DNA of 63,919 nt, filler included, from Collodictyon triciliatum (Eukaryota): assembly GCA_043381765.1 (NCBI GenBank). It is 8 parts of 8 records of this genome, joined end to end, with 100 filler letters (N's around TTAATTAATTAA, not from the genome) between each part and the next. Parts side by side here need not be neighbours in the genome. Positions count along the whole stretch, not along the records: positions 17,054 to 25,478 come from JBHJMP010003435.1; 7 more parts are not named here. One strand, given 5' to 3'. The notes below the pieces were generated by a model that worked only from the letters and a program-made list of their open reading frames with translations, was not told the origin of the DNA and did no database searches. This document shows, piece by piece, positions 17,054-60,057 of this stretch. Made by a program: the position numbers and the translations under genes. Numbering within the stretch: position 1 is the first letter of the stretch; each line of letters begins with the position of its first letter.

Positions 17054-20000
17054 AAGGGGCCCAATCACATGACCGCTTCGGAGACATCTACGTGAAGCAG
17101 TCAAAGTAATAATTGATCATTTATAGACGTTTTTTTTTTTTTTTTGCCTTTATTTCTGTAAATATATATATATATGTATGCTGATCAATTTTTTATGATA
17201 GGAATGAGCAAGCTCTGGTTGAATACACAAAGGCCATGGAAATCCGCCAAAAGAAAGTCGGAAACGAGCATCCACTTGTCGCAACATCGTACCAGAACTA
17301 TGGTCATGTCTCTCTGGCTGGGAAAAAGTAGCATATATATCCATTTAACTGGTTTTAAATCTACTTATAATTTGAGAAATATTAATATGATTGAATCTCC
17401 AAGGTATGAAGAATCTATTGAAAACTACGAAGAGGCAAGATCAATCCTTGAAAAATCGCTGGGGGCTAAGCATGCATCTGTTGCCTCGACAATCCAGTTC
17501 ATTGCAAACGTTCATCTTGCCAGTGGAAAGTTCGGATTTCTAAATTACAGATATATACATACAACATTAATTATTTTATTTCTTTCTTTCAATTTTTTAA
17601 AATGAGTGTTGCTTTATATATTTCATTGTATGGATGCTATTTGGGGATAATTTTGCATCATATAATTCTAACTAATTATATAAATATCAAATTACTTTTA
17701 TCTTATATAGGAAAACTGAGGCCTTGTCCTCATTAAAGCAATCGCTGGATATTTTCATGTCTGCCCTGGGTGAAAATCATCCGAATGTTGTGGCCTGCTA
17801 TGAAATGATTGGAGACATCAGCCATGATTTGAAGGAGTATCTCTTTATTAATTATTATTACATATTTAATTGAAAACAATAATGTATTTACTCATATTAT
17901 CCTAGCTTCAAGGGTGCTTTGGAGGCGTATGCAAAGACGCTGGATATTCGCGCGAGAACACTGGGCGAAAAGCATGCTGATTATGCGACTTCCCTGGAGA
18001 ATGTTGGCAGAACAAACTTTGAGCTTAAAAGGTTAAATTTCTCTATTATATTAAAAAAAATTAAATATTTTGATTAACACTTCCAAAAACAATGAATATT
18101 CATTAATGTTCATGCATCTAGATTGGACCAAGTCGTGGAATACTTCCAAAAGGCAGCTGCTATCAGAAAGGAGACACACACAATCATGTCGCTGAAAGAT
18201 GGCTCACAAATTGACAACATTATCCGATTCATGAAGGATAAGAAAGAGCATGAAGCCGTCATTCAGCTTTACAAAACGCTGATTCATTTATTCAGCAAGC
18301 TTTACTCCATGGATTATCTTGGGATATGGAACAGCTGTGAGGAAATCGACAAGACTTACAAGGAACTGAAGCAGCATAACGAAGCAGTGGCATTCTGGGC
18401 TGAGATGAGAGACAGATTTGCTGATAAATTTGGATGGATTCACCCCAGTACATTAAACTCATGCAAATACTTGTCCGTTCATTCAAAGGAAATTGGAATC
18501 AACAGAGAGCCTGTCGAGTTTACAAGAGTCAAGGAATTCATCAGTGAAACTCTTGATGATGCAAAGCTGGATGAGGAATGGAATCGTGAACAAATAATTC
18601 CATTTTTATTCAGCATTGTCTACATGTCAAAGACCGATGAGAGCAAATCAAAGGCTGCATCTGATGCAATCACACTTTTGAATTTCATGAATGTTTCGTT
18701 CAGTGGAATGGATTTATCAAACATCAAAATTCCACATGCAAATCTCAGTAACTCAATCCTTGATGGTGCAAATCTCACTGGTGCCAACTTGGATGGTGTT
18801 GACTTCACGAATTCGATGCTTGGTGATTGTGTTTTTGATAATGCGAATATGAATAACGTGAAATTCGGAATTCCTTATGATAAATTGGAAGGACATACAA
18901 GTTCTGTCTATAGTGTTTGCTCTATTCAAGGACCAAATGGTGAAAATTGGCTGGCTTCTGGAAGCAAAGATAAAACAATACGTATTTGGGATGTAGCCAC
19001 AGGAAACCAAATCAAAACATTAAAAGGACATACAAGTTCTGTATATAGTGTTTGCAGTATTCAAGGACCGAATGTTGAAAGTTGGCTGGCTTCTGGAAGT
19101 GATGATAAAACAATACGTGTTTGGGATGTAGCCACAGGAAACCAAATCAAAACATTAGAAGGACATACAATGGATGTCAGGAGTGTTTGCAGTATTCAAG
19201 GGCCGAATGGTGAAATTTGGTTGGCTTCTGGAAGTGGTGATAAAACAATACGTATTTGGGATGTAGCCACAGGAAGCCAAATCAATATATTAGAAGGCCA
19301 TACAGATTGGGTCAGAAGTGTTTGCAATATTCAAGGACCGAATGATGAAAATTGGTTGGCTTCTGGAAGTGGTGATAAAACAATAATTATTTGGGATACA
19401 ACCACAGGAAGCCAAATCAAAACATTAGAAGGACATACAAATGATGTCGTGTGTGTTTGCAATATTCTAGGACCGAATGGTGAAAAGTGGCTGGCTTCTG
19501 GAAGTTGGGATAAAACAATACGTGTTTGGGATGTAGCCACAGGAAACCAAATCAATAAATTGGAAGGACATACAGAATCTGTCAAGAGTGTTTGCAGTAT
19601 TCAAGGACCGAATGGTGAAAATTGGCTGGCTTCTGGAAGTGGTGATAAAACAATAAGTATTTTGGATATATCCACAGGAAACCAAATTAAAATATTAAAA
19701 GGGCATATCAATGATGTCAATAGTGTTTGCAGTATTCAAGGACCGAATGGAGAAAATTGGTTGGCTTCTGGAAGTCGTGATAATACAATACGCATCTGGG
19801 ATGTAGCCACAGGAAACCAAACACACAGTCTGCAAAAACTAGAAGTTACCTACACTGAAGGAAAATACCTCGTCAAGAAAGAAAAGCCAGACGAAGTCAT
19901 CGCAGTATTCAACAGAACAAGTGATGCGATGAACATGATTGACACCAATAGAATCCAAGATGCAAGGACAGTCCAGATTATCGGCCCAAGAAAGCTGCAA

Positions 20001-20228
20001 GGTGGAAACATCCAAATCAGAAATGTCACGGGATTGAGTCAATACAACAAATCCCTCCTTCTTTCTATCGGTGCTGCTTCCTTTCATGCGGAATTTGCTA
20101 CTTATTGTGAGCAGGGTAAGTTCACCAAGTTCCAGGCCCAAATGATGGCTGAGTGCTATGAGAATGGATGGGGTGTTGAGAAGGACACCGAGAAAGCAGC
20201 TGAGTGGAGACAGAAAGCCTCAGCTTAA
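17054..20228 (+). CDS. TPR - pentapeptide - 7x WD40 - Sel1 protein (NLR-like candidate receptor), 5'-truncated
   Basis: TPR exons 17202-17327, 17404-17529, 17711-17836, 17906-18031 (kinesin-light-chain-type ...LGxxHPxVA...). Terminal exon 18122-20228 carries ANLSNSILDGANLTGANLDGVDFT, seven GH...WD repeats and CYENGWGVEKDTEKAAEW. Confidence 0.9.
18879..19823 (+). repeat. Seven 135-bp coding tandem repeats (45-aa WD40 units)
   Basis: GGACATACA at 18891, 19026, 19161 etc.; high nucleotide identity between units. Confidence 0.95.
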
Positions 20229-21061
20229 CAAGGTAAGTAGTATAATAAATGCATATTAATATATGTTCGTTAACTATATTCATTTTAGATGGAGAGATTC
20301 TCTGGGTTTTTTTCAAGCAGACCTCCGCTTTTTTCCCACAAGGACGCTCCATGAAATCAGAATAAAACCATAAAAATGAAAGCAAAGCTGATCGATCTGT
20401 TGAATCCTTTTTTCAATAGAATGAATGTGTATAGAAATAATGACACAATATTTTACAATATACCAGAAGAGATTTACACAAGTACAATTCAATATAAAAT
20501 AAAGAATATGGGTACATACTATATTAATAGAAAGTAGTAATAGTAATATTGAAATATGAATCTGATATTACAATAGCTGATCAGAATTTTACAACCGAAA
20601 AATATTTTAGAATAGGCGAATATAGTTAATGGATAGTGTAAATGAAAAAAGTGTATGTGTAATTGGCATTTGTGAAATTAAGGTCTATCCGGGTGATAGG
20701 ATTATTATACAAGCTCTATTTATTTTTTGTGGTCTAATAACCGTTTTTTAAAGATTTTTCATCTGGATTTAATGAATAAATTTTACAGGATGATAGCTTA
20801 ACGAGTATGTGAGTATGTGCATATTAATCTAGAGACTGATAATTGCAGCAACTGTGTGAGTTATATAGATATATTCTTTAAATAGAGCATAAATATTAAA
20901 GAAAATATCCAAAAGTTTAATGGTGACAAAAAACTCGCAAATTTCCTATTTTTTCAAATAAATCAGGGTGGTCGAATTCTGTTAAATAGAATTAAAGTGT
21001 AAGCACTAATTATATAAAAATGCTATTAAGTATAATAAATAAAAGCGAGAGTATACTAGTC

Positions 21062-21088
21062 CAATGTGAAAGCACAGCTTTCACATTG
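21062..21088. other. Perfect hairpin, 12-bp stem and 3-nt loop
   Basis: CAATGTGAAAGC-ACA-GCTTTCACATTG. Confidence 0.9.
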
Positions 21089-21154
21089 AACGTCAAATCA
21101 GCGCGCAAATCTAGTTGCGAGATTTAAGAATTATTTGATACAACTAATTATAAA

Positions 21155-24100
21155 ATGCAATTAAGAGCTCATCAAGCAGAGTGCAAGCAAAAAATCTCCG
21201 AGTTTTTTGAAAATGGGTACAACTGCAAGGGGCTTGTCAAGATGTTTTGCGGCTCGGGCAAGAGCCTCGTGATCTACGACACGCTTCTTGCCCACGGCGG
21301 AGACCTCTGCGTCGTCGTCGTTCCGTCTATCCATCTGATCACGCAATTCAAAAGAGACTATCTGCTCGACGAAACCAAAATGAGATACAATCAACAAAAA
21401 TATTCCAAAGAATTTGACATTCTGACTGTATGCTCTCTGGATGAATTGGGAGACTGCAAAGACACATTCACTACCGATGAAACAGAAATCACAGACTTTT
21501 TGTTTACCGAATACACACAAAAAGTGGTGTTGATTACATACCAGAGTCTGCCCAAATTTGTTAAAATTGTGCAAGAAAACGAAATATCGATACACCTAGT
21601 TTGCTTTGACGAGGCTCACCACATTTTGGGAATAAAGATGAAGCATCTGCTGTTTGGATACGATGACTCTGAGTTTGAGTTTCAGGAAAAATTTGATGAA
21701 GAGAGTTTGTATGAATCGACGAGTTTTTTAGATAGTGTCAAGAGGACCTTGTTTTTTACGGCGACGCCCAAGAACTCGAATGGCGTTGTGATGTACGAGG
21801 TTCCAGAGACAGTTGGATACATGCTGAATGACGAGTTTGACGAAAACAGTGAGTTTTCGGATGAACCTCATTGTGGACCGATGCTGTTCGAGTACACGCA
21901 CCGGAACGGCGTCGACGACCTGATTCTAAATGATTTCAAGGTGCGTGTCGATATGTATACAGACAACACGGACAAGAGTGTTTTTGAGGCCATCTCGAGG
22001 TCGATTCTGGAAACAGGCAACAGTCGGGTGCTTACTTTTCATTCAAAGAGCTTTGTGAGTACTGGTGAAAAGTCTAATGTCTCGACATTCAGCAAGCAGA
22101 AAAAAGAGTTTTTAGAGAGTTTCCAAAAGGTCTGTCGAAACGAGTTTCCAGAGTTGCAGAAAAAGTACAAGAAAATCAGGTTCGAGGGAATGACCAGCAA
22201 GACGAAAAACCGAATGAAAATTCTGCATGAATTTGACGAGACGCCGGACGACGAAATTTTTATTCTGTCGTCTTGCAGGACAATCAATGAAGGTGTGGAT
22301 ACAAAGCGAGCAAACATGGTTGTGTTTGTAGACGAAAAGCAGTCTTTTATTGAAATCACGCAAAATATTGGGAGGGTCTGTCGAAAACAAGAAAAGTTGT
22401 CTACAATTGTGATTCCATGTTATGTGGATGTAACAAAGTACGCCAATTGTGAGACGGACGATGACAGAGACATCGTGATTCGGCAGGAGATGGCAAAGGG
22501 CGGAAACTTTAATGGAATTCTGAATGTGCTGAGTGCCCTGAGACAGGAAGACCCCTACATTTTTGAGCTGTGTCTAAAGTATCCAGAAGAGTACACGGAG
22601 ACAGAAATTCGTAGCAATCTAAAAAGAAACGGGCTTGAATTGCTGGACAAAGAGTATACGCCAGCAGAGTTGTTTTGTAATTACGGATGCGAGTATGATG
22701 AAAAAAAGTCGGAAGAGAGTAATTTCAGGGACCTGCAACAGGTGATAAAGAAAAATGTGCAGGTCATCAACAATTCAGTTTTGGAACAAGATTTGTATTT
22801 GGAAAGTCCAGAGTGTAACGAAACGGAGGTTATATATAAAACGGAGACAGGATACAAAAAAACTAGAAATAAAACAAATGGTGTAAGGAGGATAGAAAAA
22901 CCAAACCGGAATATGAAAATCAATGTGCATACGAATGACGAAATTAAGGTGTTGTGGAAGATGGTATCGGATATTTCGATACAGAAAAAGGTTTTTGGAG
23001 GGTTCATAGAGTGTGAGGTAAAGAATTTGGAAACAAGTGAGGATAGATGGATGGAGACACTAGACAATGTATCAAAATATATAGATGAGAATGGCAAGAG
23101 ACCTAGTTCAAAAAGTAGGAATAAAGAAGAAAAAAGGATGGGTTCATGGGTAAAAAATCAACAGACAAATTATAAAAAAAAAGTATTTTTAATGAAGAAT
23201 TCAAGTATCAGAAAAATGTGGGAATCTTTTTTAAAAAAATATTCGAAACACTTTTTATCTGGGAAAGAAATATGGATGCAGAAATTGGAGCAAGTGAAGC
23301 AGTACATCAATCAAAACAAAAAGACGCCAAGTGCTGCTGATAAAAATCCAGAAGTCAAAACTTTGGGATACTGGGTTTCAGATCAAAAAAAAAATTATGA
23401 AAAAAATGAGAATATAATGAGAGAGCCCGAAATCCGCAAACTGTGGGAGGAATTTAGGCAAGACTATTCAATATTGTCCAATACAGAAATATGGATGCAG
23501 AAATTGGAGCAAGTCAAGCAGTACATCAATCAAAACAAAAAGACGCCAAGTGCTGCTGATAAAAATCCAGAAGTCAAAACTTTGGCAATGTGGATTGGTA
23601 CTCAAAAAAAAATTATGAAAAAAATGAGAATATAATGAGAGAGCCCGAAATCCGCAAACTGTGGGAGGAATTCATGCAAGAGTTTTCAATGTACCTTTTG
23701 TCCAATACAGAAATATGGATGCAGAAATTGGAGCAAGTGAAGCAGTACATCAATCAAAACAAAAAGACGCCTAGTGCTGGTGATAAAAACCCAGAAATCA
23801 AAAGTTTGGGACAATGGATTCAAAACCAAAAAAATGGATATGAAAAAAATGAGAATATAATGAGAGAGCCCGAAATCCGCAAACTGTGGGAGGAATTTAA
23901 GATAGAGTACCTTGACGAGAAAAAGCCGGCACGAAAATCTACAAAAATAGCGCCAACAGAACTCAAAGAAAAATCAGAAACGGAACAGGAAAAAGCGAAA
24001 AGAAAAGTGTCGCAGTACCAGGAGCTCTGCAAAAAGATGGCGACGCAGCACTCGCAAACAACGAGCGAGCAGTTTGCGAAGAATCCTGGGCAGTGGCACG

Positions 24101-24579
24101 AGTACCACGATGCGCGCGACTTTTCGTTCGAGGGTTATGTAGAGCAAGATGAGATACCAGTCAACAAGATCATAAGGTACCTGCAGAGCAAGGAAAAGAG
24201 GAGGTTGAATATATTGGATTTGGGATGTGGCAGAAACAAGATCAAAACATTTTTTGAGGGGAATCGTAATTTTAATATAACGGGCTATGACCATGTTTCA
24301 TATAATGGGTCGATAGCGTGCGACATATCGGAGCTTCCGGAGGACAATGAGTCGGTGAGTATATGTATTTTTAGCCAGAGCCTGATGGGTAGCAACTGGC
24401 AGAGTTATATAAAGGAGGCGAAGCGGGTGCTTACTTATAACGGAGAGATGATAATTAGCGAGAGTGTGGAACGGTACAATGTGGTAAAAGAGACAGTAGT
24501 TGAACTCGGATTTACAATTTTGAGAGAAGAATATGAGCCGACGAATCGATGGTTTTATATATACGGAATAAGTAATTAG
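21155..24579 (+). CDS. SF2 (ResIII/Type ISP-like) helicase + 4 helicase-associated (HA) repeats + RRP8-like SAM methyltransferase; ~1141 aa if one frameshift near 23604-23612 is corrected
   Basis: Helicase motifs LRAHQ, MFCGSGKS, VPSIHLITQ, TYQS, DEAHH, TATP, INEGVD, QNIGRVCRK. HA repeats W..KLEQVKQYI.....PS........LG.W...Q. MTase ILDLGCG, ACDISELP, IFSQSLMGSN, EAKRVL. ORFs 21155..23635 and 23590..24579 join in an A9 run that is A10 in the sister repeat. Confidence 0.88.
23267..23897 (+). repeat. Three near-identical ~220-bp coding repeats (HA domains)
   Basis: GAAATATGGATGCAGAAATTGGAGCAAGT at 23267, 23486 and 23710. Confidence 0.95.
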
Positions 24580-24959
24580 TAAGTGGATAAATATTTAGAG
24601 TATTCTTGTAAAACAAGATATGTAACCAAGTTATAATCTTTTTTATTAAAATGAATAGTCTCAAACCACTGTATTTGTTTGACGTGTTCATTGATGTTTG
24701 GTGTCAAGATTTTGTCAAAGTTATTAATAACCTTAGCAATAAAAACGTAGTAAGTAGCAATTTTATAAGCGTTTTGGTCTAATAAATGATAGTCTTTATT
24801 GTAAATAAGTTTTGATTCTTCAAAAGTTTCTCTTATGGCAGTTTGAAATATAGTTTCATTTGGTTCGAAACTGCCTTTTGGAATGGACCATTTCAAACTT
24901 CTGTCGTCTAAAATCAATAAAAATTTAGAGCAATCTATACAATAAATTTGGACTTTCCG
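24576..24959 (-). pseudogene. Nudix hydrolase ORF with no ATG start (possibly 5'-decayed)
   Basis: Intact Nudix box GSFEPNETIFQTAIRETFEES preceded by KWSIPKG. The frame extends upstream as RKVQIYCIDCSKFLLIL to a TAA at 24960-24962, with no Met. Confidence 0.75.
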
Positions 24960-25156
24960 TTACGTGGTGTAAATTGTAAAACGTGAAACGTGAGTTGTAA
25001 AACGTAAAACGTAAAACGTGAGTTGTGTGAATAATGTGCCAAAATTTTTTACGCTTGGGTGGTACAAAAAATGTCCACTTACTATTTTAAGCTTCAGAAT
25101 ACCGTACAAAACATTCAGAGAGTACAAAGCACACTAAGCATACACAAAGCATCTCA

Positions 25157-25478
25157 CCCGAAAAAAATAAGAATGCGGGTTGTGAGAAAAGTCGATCTTC
25201 GCCCAAAAAAAAGAGAATGCGGGCTGTGAGAAAAGTCGATCTTCGCCCGACAAAATAAGAATGCGGGCTGTGAGAAAAGTCGATCTTCGCCCAAAAAAAA
25301 GAGAATGCGCGTTGTGAGAAAAGTCGATCTTCGCCCGAAAAAATGGGAATGCGGGTTGTGTGAAAAGTCGATCTCCGATCTTCGCCCGAAAAAAAGAGAA
25401 TGCGCGTTGTGAGAAAAGTCGATCTTCGCCCGACAAAATAAGAATGCGGGTTGTGAGAATAGTCGATCTTCGATCTTC
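25157..25478. repeat. 44-bp tandem repeat array, ~7 copies, runs into the contig end
   Basis: Unit ~GCCCGAAAAAAAGAGAATGCGGGTTGTGAGAAAAGTCGATCTTC with point variants and two 7-nt GATCT(T/C)C duplications. Confidence 0.95.
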
Positions 25479-25578
25479 NNNNNNNNNNNNNNNNNNNNNN
25501 NNNNNNNNNNNNNNNNNNNNNNTTAATTAATTAANNNNNNNNNNNNNNNNNNNNNNNNNNNNNNNNNNNNNNNNNNNN

Positions 25579-27959: not shown

Positions 27960-28995
27960 NNNNNNNNNNNNNNNNNNNNNNNNNNNNNNNNNNNNNNNNN
28001 NNNNNNNNNNNNNNNNNNNNNNNNNNNNNNNNNNNNNNNNNNNNNNNNNNNNNNNNNNNNNNNNNNNNNNNNNNNNNNNNNNNNNNNNNNNNNNNNNNNN
28101 NNNNNNNNNNNNNNNNNNNNNNNNNNNNNNNNNNNNNNNNNNNNNNNNNNNNNNNNNNNNNNNNNNNNNNNNNNNNNNNNNNNNNNNNNNNNNNNNNNNN
28201 NNNNNNNNNNNNNNNNNNNNNNNNNNNNNNNNNNNNNNNNNNNNNNNNNNNNNNNNNNNNNNNNNNNNNNNNNNNNNNNNNNNNNNNNNNNNNNNNNNNN
28301 NNNNNNNNNNNNNNNNNNNNNNNNNNNNNNNNNNNNNNNNNNNNNNNNNNNNNNNNNNNNNNNNNNNNNNNNNNNNNNNNNNNNNNNNNNNNNNNNNNNN
28401 NNNNNNNNNNNNNNNNNNNNNNNNNNNNNNNNNNNNNNNNNNNNNNNNNNNNNNNNNNNNNNNNNNNNNNNNNNNNNNNNNNNNNNNNNNNNNNNNNNNN
28501 NNNNNNNNNNNNNNNNNNNNNNNNNNNNNNNNNNNNNNNNNNNNNNNNNNNNNNNNNNNNNNNNNNNNNNNNNNNNNNNNNNNNNNNNNNNNNNNNNNNN
28601 NNNNNNNNNNNNNNNNNNNNNNNNNNNNNNNNNNNNNNNNNNNNNNNNNNNNNNNNNNNNNNNNNNNNNNNNNNNNNNNNNNNNNNNNNNNNNNNNNNNN
28701 NNNNNNNNNNNNNNNNNNNNNNNNNNNNNNNNNNNNNNNNNNNNNNNNNNNNNNNNNNNNNNNNNNNNNNNNNNNNNNNNNNNNNNNNNNNNNNNNNNNN
28801 NNNNNNNNNNNNNNNNNNNNNNNNNNNNNNNNNNNNNNNNNNNNNNNNNNNNNNNNNNNNNNNNNNNNNNNNNNNNNNNNNNNNNNNNNNNTGCGAAAAA
28901 TTATGCATACAATTATCAATATGATTTTATTATTATTATTACTATTATTATTTACAAAGTAAAATCTGAAACACAGTTTTATATCAAGGAAAAGG

Positions 28996-33985: not shown

Positions 33986-34086
33986 ANNNNNNNNNNNNNN
34001 NNNNNNNNNNNNNNNNNNNNNNNNNNNNNNTTAATTAATTAANNNNNNNNNNNNNNNNNNNNNNNNNNNNNNNNNNNNNNNNNNNN

Positions 34087-42507: not shown

Positions 42508-42607
42508 NNNNNNNNNNNNNNNNNNNNNNNNNNNNNNNNNNNNNNNNNNNNTTAATTAATTAANNNNNNNNNNNNNNNNNNNNNNNNNNNNNNNNNNNNN
42601 NNNNNNN

Positions 42608-51022: not shown

Positions 51023-51896
51023 NNNNNNNNNNNNNNNNNNNNNNNNNNNNNNNNNNNNNNNNNNNNTTAATTAATTAANNNNNNNNNNNNNNNNNNNNNN
51101 NNNNNNNNNNNNNNNNNNNNNNTTTTTTTTGTTTTTTTGTTTTTTTGTTTTTTTGTTTTTTGTTTTTTGTTTTTTATTGGTTTTGTTATTTGTTATTTTT
51201 TGGAGCCAGTTTTGGACTTCGGTAGACACATCCTAAGAATCAAAAGAATATACAAAAGAAACCGATAAATGAAGAGAAAAAAAACTCAACGAAAGGAGCA
51301 ACACCCGTGGTGGCTGCGTTGTGGCCGTTTGGCATGGAGACAGTATCGCGGCAGAAAACGCCAAAATCCTGCGACTGCCTGAATACTAAATCCGCCACCC
51401 AGAAACCGTTCTCTTTAAGGCATTCGCGAAGTAGAAATATACGTTTGATACACTTAATGTGAAAGCTTCTGAACTCGGATGATAGGTGTTTCGATGGGAG
51501 GAGCAGGCCGCGCCTTCATGTGTGCATAGATGGCAAATGTTTCTGGCGCGAAGAGAGCGATTGCGCCAGACATAGAGCTTCTCTCTCTTTCAGGCAAAAC
51601 ATATCACACAATCACAAAAGCGAAAACAAGAGAAATTATTTGCGCAATCCATTTGACATCTCCATTTTGCAAATAATATATTCCTATTGGCAGATTTTCA
51701 ATTTATGTTATGATAAATCCTATTAAGAAAGTGAATACGCGAAAAGTCAGGGTGGTATATTTCAGCACACACAGCATCCAAAGTAGATCAATCTGAAAAT
51801 ATTGTTGGTAGATATCTGGGCACTAAACAAGAGACTATAAGCTTTTATTTGTTCAGAAAATCAGTATTCGCCTGAATTAAGCAACCGACTCGCTGT

Positions 51897-59516: not shown

Positions 59517-60057
59517 CTTGCATGAGAGATATANNNNNNNNNNNNNNNNNNNNNNNNNNNNNNNNNNNNNNNNNNNNTTAATTAATTAANNNNNNNNNNN
59601 NNNNNNNNNNNNNNNNNNNNNNNNNNNNNNNNNGACTCCGAAGTTGGTCAGTTTTCAAACAATTCGTAATATTCAGCCTTTAGTTTTTTTTTTTTTTGAA
59701 AAATAAAATAAAACAACTCACAGAATATACCACTTTCATCTATCTATTTATTATTTTAAAATAAAAATAAAAAAGAGAAGAAAACGTCTGCATTGAACGA
59801 AAAATCCAACCAAATAATATTGTTCGTGTGTCTGTGAATATGTAAGATGCCCATGGTCATTATCGTCTTGCATTCTTCTCCATCTAGGAGGCCAAAACAG
59901 CGCTGTTCGCCTGGATTTCACACTACCATCCTCATCGTACGCCACGATGTTACTTCGAGAGATTTGCAAGCGCTCTACAAGTCTTTCCTCGCAAGTCTCC
60001 ATGGCAAAGTCTGGCGCAGAGTCTTCTAATCACCCTGCTGACTCTTAAGCACCAAGC

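Follow-up and report, generated by a model that had tools for sequence, protein, structure and literature searches.

A WD40 array with four variable codons per unit

We describe a gene that ends in an array of WD40 repeats, found within a 63,919-nucleotide stretch of DNA from the protist Collodictyon triciliatum (GenBank assembly GCA_043381765.1), referred to here as the window. The window is a concatenation rather than one stretch of chromosome: seven linkers of the form N44-TTAATTAATTAA-N44 join contigs of approximately 8.4 kb, which seem to be arranged by length, and features lying across a linker from each other are therefore not genomic neighbors. The array and its gene sit on the contig at positions 17054 to 25478 (JBHJMP010003435.1), and the contig boundary at 17054 truncates the gene at its 5′ end. 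The seven units of the array have stayed similar to each other except at a few codons, which show an excess of nonsynonymous change and are predicted to lie on the top face of a beta-propeller.

The seven 135-bp units (starting at 18879 + 135k and covering 18879 to 19823) run head to tail, all in frame, within an open reading frame (ORF) at 18123 to 20228 (Table 1). Tandem Repeats Finder recovered a single array at 18884 to 19821, with a period of 135, 6.9 copies, 85% matches, 0% indels, and a score of 1309. DNA identity between units ranges from 0.807 to 0.889 over the 21 pairs, and amino acid identity ranges from 0.67 to 0.84 with a mean of 0.75, compared with 0.42 within the array of the related protein P0001 and 0.28 within that of P0121. 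An initial annotation made from the DNA alone had spoken of seven nearly identical 135-bp units; the units and their period hold, but at 81 to 89% DNA identity they are homogenized rather than nearly identical.

Twenty-four of the 45 amino acid columns of the unit are invariant, and at least four residue types occur in columns 8, 11, 23, and 30 only. In unit 6, the W of the WD motif is replaced by L. Codons 8, 9, 11, and 30, which make up 4 of the 45 codons, hold 41% of the pairwise nonsynonymous differences and rank first among 148,995 four-codon sets; under a uniform spread, the chance of at least three columns with at least four changes is approximately 0.006. The initial annotation had likewise placed the variation at a few sites, and no even spread was seen; the residue strings that it quoted for codons 8 and 9, 11, and 30 agree exactly with the unit table. 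All seven units also share one best outside match, unit 6 of P0001 (identity, 0.60 to 0.69). Judged by these alignments, the shared match shows that all seven blades go back to a single ancestral unit, by amplification or homogenization in this lineage. A tree of 24 units and 45 columns was mostly unresolved, with 15 of 21 inner branches open, and its sole relevant supported grouping, that of window unit 1 with unit 1 of the relative P0002 (91/85), hints at positional orthology.

Nonsynonymous excess at the variable codons

Because codons 8, 9, 11, and 30 were picked from the same data, we also tested site sets fixed by the literature. In the fungal HNWD receptors, codons 7, 9, 25, and 27 are positively selected; they sit on either side of the conserved codons 8 and 26, within the d-a loop and b-c turn (Paoletti 2007, PMC1805685). 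Codons 9, 11, and 30 of the window units correspond to HNWD codons 7, 9, and 25, and codon 32 corresponds to HNWD codon 27; the equivalents of the hotspots defined in WDSPdb are codons 9, 11, and 30.

By the Nei-Gojobori method over all pairs, the nonsynonymous-to-synonymous rate ratio (dN/dS) of the whole unit is 0.83. The proportion of nonsynonymous differences (pN) reaches 0.64 at codons 8, 9, 11, and 30, set against a whole-unit proportion of synonymous differences (pS) of 0.17, and the other 41 codons have a pN of 0.095 and a pS of 0.164. Parsimony on a tree built by the unweighted pair group method with arithmetic mean counted 19 synonymous changes on 28.7 sites. On the same tree, codons 9, 11, and 30 accumulated 18 nonsynonymous changes, compared with 4.8 expected if dN equals dS (P = 3e-6), and codons 9, 11, 30, and 32 accumulated 19, compared with 6.6 expected under neutrality (P = 6e-5). 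The latter set ranks 52 among the 148,995 four-codon sets (P = 3.5e-4). Nonsynonymous change at the literature-defined sites thus runs at 2.9 to 3.8 times the synonymous rate. A codon model gave an overall omega of 0.73 and a value of 0.49 for the 41 codons outside the four-codon set, with codons 8, 9, 11, and 30 evolving approximately 12 times faster; the partitioned model was preferred over a single one (2*deltaLnL = 59.2; 6 degrees of freedom; P = 6e-11). A dN/dS above 1 at the variable sites, which the initial annotation had put forward as a check on all such repeats of the genome, is found in these seven units as a set-wise nonsynonymous excess at codons 9, 11, and 30.

The more diverged arrays of relatives (19 units in P0267, 17 in P0266, 10 in P0121, and 7 in P0001) give a measure of which positions are free to vary. 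In these arrays, positions 4, 17, 23, 1, and 43 are as variable as or more variable than codons 8, 9, 11, and 30, which rank from 1 to 29 of 45. In the window array, the positions that are free in the old arrays have two or three residue types, and codons 8, 9, 11, and 30 are saturated. This comparison argues that the four codons are not merely the least constrained sites of the unit.

Placement of the variable residues on a modeled propeller

Pfam assigns the array to WD40 in seven stretches (E = 1.2e-68), and the closest protein in sequence is WDR5. An AlphaFold2 model built from a 53-row alignment (predicted local distance difference test score [pLDDT], 94.8; predicted template modeling score, 0.92) has 28 strand segments, four per unit, 27 of which contain at least three residues and one, at the N terminus, two. 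The array is confidently modeled as a closed seven-bladed WD40 beta-propeller. Foldseek matched the model to the seven-bladed PkwA, LIS1, and WDR5 at template modeling scores of approximately 0.8, with the cyanobacterial-type propeller of PkwA as the best structural match.

In the DSSP string of the model, strand a covers unit positions 10 to 17, strand b covers 23 to 29, strand c covers 34 to 38, and strand d starts at 44 and ends at position 3 of the following unit. The d-a loop accordingly contains positions 8 and 9; position 11 comes second in strand a, and position 30 begins the b-c turn. Positions 21 and 23 of the a-b loop and 39 and 40 of the c-d loop, which vary less, face the opposite side. 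The d-a loop, the beginning of strand a, and the b-c turn have been placed on the top interaction face of WD40 propellers (Paoletti 2007, PMC1805685; WDSPdb, PMC4383882), where the hotspots are R1-2, R1, and D-1 (WDSPdb, PMC4383882). By strand topology and this literature, rather than by measured geometry, codons 8, 9, 11, and 30 map to the top face of the model, the location that the initial annotation had given them, and 28 residues, four per blade, would ring that face.

Divergence among relatives and in natural samples

Two close relatives recovered from other samples, P0002 (392 amino acids [aa]) and P0270 (132 aa), are 82 to 89% identical to the window gene in the flank of the array (218 of 245 and 70 of 85 residues, respectively). 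Their residues at codons 8, 9, 11, and 30 differ from those of the window at 14 of 15 comparable positions (10 of 11 in P0002 and 4 of 4 in P0270), compared with 19 of 128 other WD residues, the remaining 109 being identical (Fisher P = 1.2e-9). The complete four-residue combinations, seven from the window, two from P0002, and one from P0270, are all different (10 of 10).

Contigs from three DNA metagenome runs, each belonging to a different study of freshwater or sediment samples, aligned to the window, as did contigs from one RNA-like run. A 175-nucleotide contig over 18827 to 19001, covering unit 1 and its flank with 2 differences, occurs in runs X1 and X3 from two independent studies. In unit 2, a loose end in run X1 after position 19034 continues into a variant form of the unit that differs in its residues at codons 8, 9, 11, and 12. 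In unit 3, contigs of X1, X3, and the RNA-like run X16 have compensating one-base gaps at 19169 to 19175, exactly at codons 8 and 9. Letter differences between the run contigs and the window were covered in 40 of 411 rows. Joints at 19140>19967 (X1) and 19281>19967 (X7) mark forms with a shorter stretch from the end of a unit to the tail, which may be either paralogs or other organisms.

No read or contig among the run contigs aligned to the window spans the array; therefore, the number and order of the units are known from the assembly alone. A search of metagenome contigs for related loci matched 36 pattern stretches, none of which was confirmed, and a degenerate pattern of 33 letters, drawn from the conserved unit core, had no matches in metagenome contigs. 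The proteins retrieved with just the WD region as query were all generic WD40 proteins, at no more than 53% identity among the 120 matches listed. With the non-WD part of the protein, there were 15,661 matches at an E value of 0.001 or less, almost all to pentapeptide-repeat proteins, and only P0266, P0267, and P0001 covered the whole non-WD query in their best stretch.

Gene structure and domain architecture of relatives

Transcription and splicing of the gene are shown by three GT..AG joints in X16, of which 120 of 490 aligned contigs are at least 99% alike to the window. The intron at 17328 to 17403 (GT..AG) is removed in two X16 contigs, and the intron at 18032 to 18121 (GT..AG) is supported by the joint 18029>18120, read with the cut shifted by +2; the third joint lies just past the stop codon (Table 1). 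Four consecutive TPR exons have exactly the same length and phase, each encoding 42 residues, and the WD40 array that follows is free of introns. The window gene aligns to residues 396 to 1215 of P0001 at 38.6% identity. A ciliate genetic code with TAA read as glutamine, prompted by the GT..AG intron after the TAA codon, was considered and rejected; TAA is read as a stop because neither TAA nor TAG occurs in frame within the 701-codon ORF.

Table 1. Coordinates of the gene, its WD40 units, and the linkers of the window
Feature	Position	Strand	Description
Linkers N44-TTAATTAATTAA-N44	8431-8530, 16954-17053, 25479-25578, 33987-34086, 42508-42607, 51023-51122, 59534-59633		
Partial TPR exon	17054..17105	+	5′-truncated by contig boundary; tblastn match of P0267 residues 1148-1241 begins at 17059; GT donor at 17106
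TPR exon	17202..17327	+	126 nt, phase 2, one TPR unit; TPR_12 match; acceptor read from sequence
TPR exon	17404..17529	+	126 nt, phase 2, one TPR unit; 5′ edge from X16 joint 17327>17404; 3′ edge inferred from GT at 17530 and frame
TPR exon	17711..17836	+	126 nt, phase 2, one TPR unit; edges inferred from AG/GT and frame continuity; tblastn with P0001 and P0267
TPR exon	17906..18031	+	126 nt, phase 2, one TPR unit; 3′ edge from X16 joint; 5′ edge inferred
Last coding exon	18122..20228	+	Helical linker, pentapeptide repeats, seven WD40 units, conserved tail, TAA stop (20226-20228); ORF, Pfam
Pentapeptide-repeat segment	18681..18866	+	ORF residues 187-248; Pfam Pentapeptide E=1.5e-17, Pentapeptide_4 E=8e-8
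WD40 unit 1	18879..19013	+	Codons 8-9, 11, 30 at 18900-18905, 18909-18911, 18966-18968 (SS / Y / K)
WD40 unit 2	19014..19148	+	Codons 8-9, 11, 30 at 19035-19040, 19044-19046, 19101-19103 (SS / Y / D)
WD40 unit 3	19149..19283	+	Codons 8-9, 11, 30 at 19170-19175, 19179-19181, 19236-19238 (MD / R / G)
WD40 unit 4	19284..19418	+	Codons 8-9, 11, 30 at 19305-19310, 19314-19316, 19371-19373 (DW / R / G)
WD40 unit 5	19419..19553	+	Codons 8-9, 11, 30 at 19440-19445, 19449-19451, 19506-19508 (ND / V / W)
WD40 unit 6	19554..19688	+	Codons 8-9, 11, 30 at 19575-19580, 19584-19586, 19641-19643 (ES / K / G)
WD40 unit 7	19689..19823	+	Codons 8-9, 11, 30 at 19710-19715, 19719-19721, 19776-19778 (ND / N / R)
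Family-specific C-terminal tail	19824..20225	+	134 aa; weak Sel1-like half repeat at end (Sel1 E=3.6e-6, below Pfam cutoff)
3′ untranslated region intron	20233..20288	+	56 nt, GT..AG, 4 nt after TAA stop; joint 20230>20287 (cut +2) in 3 X16 contigs

The domain order in full-length relatives is calponin homology (CH), TeTIR-like DUF4062, NACHT, TPR, helical linker, pentapeptide repeats, WD40 units of 45 residues, and tail. P0267 (2,619 aa) has the complete order in a single chain and contains 19 ungapped WD units by count. P0122 has CH, DUF4062 at residues 461 to 552, and NACHT/nSTAND1 (NACHT at 735 to 903), and its residues 460 to 546 match the solved TeTIR chain of human TEP1, 11gz_A, at an E value of 3.4e-15, with the phmmer match spanning chain positions 6 to 92 of 220. 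The DUF4062 segment of the relatives carries an RWG motif, and NACHT is present in P0122, P0123, and P0267. Weak Pfam matches to TPR_NPHP3 and NPHP3_N were also obtained, and PADLOC returned a weak Avs1b match to the nucleoside triphosphatase region of P0122 (E = 5e-6) together with repeat matches and nothing more. The number of units in the family goes from 7 (window and P0001) to 17 to 19 ungapped units (P0266 and P0267), which are not alleles. The tail of the window gene is also terminal in P0001, P0267, and P0266 and internal in P0121; past the conserved tail, P0121 has approximately 300 extra residues that look MIB/HERC2-like by eye only.

The TeTIR domain of TEP1 is an NADase that depletes nicotinamide adenine dinucleotide (NAD) and kills cells, and TeTIR-NACHT proteins bearing WD40 or TPR repeats are found in animals, bacteria, and archaea and in a few fungi and protists (10.64898/2026.09.21.753143). 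In the window gene, Pfam detects TPR_12 in the exons and WD40 in the seven units, which gives it the C-terminal TPR/WD40 part of this family.

Other features of the window

A helicase gene at 21155 to 24579 on the plus strand lies 0.9 kb downstream of the WD gene and is intron-free, with ResIII/Helicase_C, several Helicase-associated (HA), and Methyltransf_8 domains. Its HA part is a 224-bp tandem repeat (23266 to 23897; 2.9 copies; 89% matches; 3% indels), and the reading frame switches between ORFs at 21155 to 23635 and 23590 to 24579, a change that may reflect a frameshift within the repeat, misassembly, or a pseudogene. A giant-virus origin of the contig was considered and is unsupported, as a related-locus search of IMG/VR found no relative of the helicase and introns are spliced out of the WD gene.

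The 3′ end of the same contig is a 44/88-bp tandem repeat (25157 to 25472; 7 copies; 84 to 87% matches), and an (AAAC)n run at 16795 to 16909 closes the preceding contig; contig breaks appear to coincide with simple repeats. An additional run of 932 N occupies 27960 to 28891. On the minus strand of a neighboring contig, at approximately 8700 to 15700, translations give many short ORF pieces with S4-like segments (R or K at every third residue) and pore-like stretches, which suggests a multiexon gene for a voltage-gated cation channel.

Interpretation and alternative explanations

The array is probably the ligand-sensing WD40 domain of a protein similar to NOD-like receptors (NLRs) of the STAND class, in a freshwater microbial eukaryote, with its binding face under diversifying selection. 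Membership of the window gene among NACHT/STAND proteins would follow from the architecture of its full-length relatives. Under this reading, one ancestral unit would have given rise to seven blades by tandem amplification or homogenization within a single exon, with the scaffold kept approximately 85% alike and divergence driven at four residues per blade, a pair in the d-a loop and single residues at the start of strand a and in the b-c turn. The top face could then bind a variable ligand, pathogen-derived or nonself. Ligand binding would release NACHT oligomerization, which in turn would switch on the N-terminal effector, in the human relative TEP1 an NAD-cleaving, cell-killing domain. The window gene may thereby have an immune or allorecognition role. 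The initial annotation had proposed a nonself or pathogen receptor under diversifying selection; the excess of nonsynonymous change agrees with the second part, and the receptor function is proposed from architecture only.

Several observations weigh against this reading. The selection tests rest on seven units of one gene copy, single-codon binomial tests were not significant (P values of 0.22 to 0.61), and the four-codon omega hit the program bound of 50 and so gives no estimate. The set of codons 8, 9, 11, and 30 was chosen from the data on which it was tested, although the literature-defined sets also pass, and in the latter, codon 32 is near-invariant (K in six units and N in one). A scaffold omega of approximately 0.5 and a whole-unit dN/dS of 0.73 to 0.83 point to generally relaxed constraint. 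Tree-based counts presuppose that units do not recombine. The PHI test gave no signal of gene conversion or recombination among units (observed value of 0.376 against a permuted mean of 0.399; P = 0.16), with incompatibility at 61 of the 153 informative site pairs. The blades of P0001 and P0121 are ordinary and diverged, so homogenization is not family-wide, and the window array itself, at 0.67 to 0.84 amino acid and 0.81 to 0.89 DNA identity, lies below the very high internal conservation of fungal arrays. The TeTIR/NACHT part of the gene is neither on its contig nor elsewhere in the window. P0002 and P0270 may be alleles, paralogs, or orthologs of the window gene.

The same relaxed constraint would be expected of a young tandem amplification followed by neutral drift, with copies of one unit diverging fastest at positions where any residue suits the fold, in which case the gene would encode an ordinary highly repetitive WD40 protein with neither positive selection nor a receptor role. 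The array identity of 0.75 fits this account, as recent duplication explains such proteins (Hu et al. 2017, PMC5587647), and so do the PHI result and the underpowered single-codon tests. Positions 4, 17, 43, and 1, which are as free as the four sites in old arrays, nevertheless have just two or three residue types in the window. Neutral sites are expected to change at the synonymous rate, whereas the literature-defined sites exceed it severalfold, and the differences of P0002 and P0270 from the window fall on the four sites, the other WD residues differing no more than the flank. We therefore regard drift as an unlikely account, though one to be reckoned with. A different possibility is that the blade-specific residues serve one conserved, asymmetric partner, as an old specialization under purifying selection. 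The relatives carry a CH domain, which is usual in cytoskeletal proteins. Blade-specific top-face residues are also a feature of every WD40 protein (WDSPdb, PMC4383882). A fixed partner is nonetheless quite improbable: homologous blades differ at nearly all of the four-site residues in both P0002 and P0270 next to a well-conserved flank, and the seven blades come from one unit, so their differences are recent.

The array could also be an artifact of assembly in which units of several paralogs were collapsed or joined into a chimera. The contigs are fragmented at approximately 8.4 kb and no aligned contig bridges the array, many contigs can be placed at two sites (135 of 490 in X16), and the units are covered at several times the depth of the flank; depth figures and uncovered parts are otherwise not used as evidence. 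An artifact would hardly be expected to yield an in-frame array with 0 indels and exactly seven units that close into a propeller at a pLDDT of 94.8, with both flanks following the family domain order, and unit 1 with its flank recurs at 2 differences in 175 nucleotides in two independent studies. We give this explanation very little credence.

Homogenized arrays with hypervariable ligand-contact residues are a hallmark of the fungal HNWD type of NLR and a rare sequence-only sign of a recognition repertoire. Their occurrence in a free-living freshwater protist widens the range of candidate innate-immune or allorecognition receptors and offers a testable hypothesis on sensing for the TEP1/NWD family, which is poorly understood, although it adds no new principle, the pattern being already known in fungal receptors. 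We found no description of hypervariable homogenized WD40 arrays in protist NLR-like genes in the open-access and bioRxiv literature. More tentatively, and with considerable doubt, a protist lineage may have independently evolved the HNWD strategy within the TeTIR-NACHT family, combining a pool of homogenized WD40 units whose top-face residues selection keeps diverse, an intracellular receptor repertoire fed by that pool, and a coupled NAD-cleaving death effector. If so, this would be the first evidence of TEP1/NWD family members as variable immune or allorecognition sensors, and the combination of a homogenized scaffold with hypervariable contact residues would recur across eukaryotic supergroups.

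Comparison with known systems

The closest parallel is with the HNWD/NWD genes of Podospora anserina (het-d, het-e, and het-r). In both, a C-terminal WD40 array is encoded in one exon within a NACHT STAND architecture, here in the relatives; units are far more alike than usual WD40 blades; the hypervariable residues are those on either side of the conserved V after GH and the one preceding the conserved D in the b-c turn, all on the top face; and nonsynonymous change exceeds synonymous change at the top-face sites. As in fungi, where 55 combinations occur in 69 units, the residue combinations are diverse, with all 10 distinct here (PMC1805685, PMC2873952, PMC4986451). The initial annotation had equated the variable positions with those of HET-D/HET-E, which is correct for three of the four HNWD codons, each individually hypervariable here, but not for HNWD codon 27, the residue after the conserved D, which does not vary here; as a set, the four equivalents carry the top-face excess. 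Codon 8, the residue two after H, is in turn an extra variable site beyond the HNWD set. The unit has 45 residues instead of 42, with an a-b loop three residues longer, and units share 67 to 84% of their amino acids, compared with up to 100% in Podospora (Paoletti 2007, PMC1805685). For fungal NLR repeats to count as "highly internally conserved," more than 85% identity over at least 100 aa is required (Dyrka 2014, PMC4986451). The relatives of the window gene carry CH, TeTIR-like, TPR, and pentapeptide domains, whereas HNWD proteins carry a HET domain, and the host is not a fungus.

By architecture, the window gene would belong with the TeTIR-NACHT family (human TEP1, NWD1, NWD2, TTC41, and NPHP3), with TeTIR and NACHT known from its relatives only, in which DUF4062 lies upstream of NACHT and is followed by TPR and WD40. 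The TeTIR preprint lists a small number of protist members (10.64898/2026.09.21.753143). The window family differs in combining TPR, pentapeptide, and WD40 repeats together with a CH domain and a tail, and the window gene differs in its homogenized, hypervariable repeats, which the available text of the preprint does not describe for TeTIR-NACHT proteins (10.64898/2026.09.21.753143).

Fast-evolving repeats under diversifying selection have also been reported for the NB-ARC-TPR and LRR-ROCO candidate receptors of Ectocarpus (Zambounis et al. 2012, PMC3341825). The Ectocarpus genes have one TPR per exon, as in the four 126-nucleotide TPR exons of the window gene, but vary through shuffling of repeat exons, whereas the window array varies by point differences at four codons in an intron-free WD40 exon (PMC3341825). 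Highly repetitive WD40 proteins, with an internal identity of at least 0.7, occur in prokaryotes, fungi, and protists and are attributed to recent repeat duplication (Hu et al. 2017, PMC5587647). The window array falls within this class at a mean of 0.75 by our own calculation, from which the formula of that paper may differ. The catalog calls such repeats young and stable and, in its accessible part, includes no site-wise selection analysis (PMC5587647). Highly repetitive WD40 proteins in protists and fast-evolving repeat-based receptors in a brown alga were already known.

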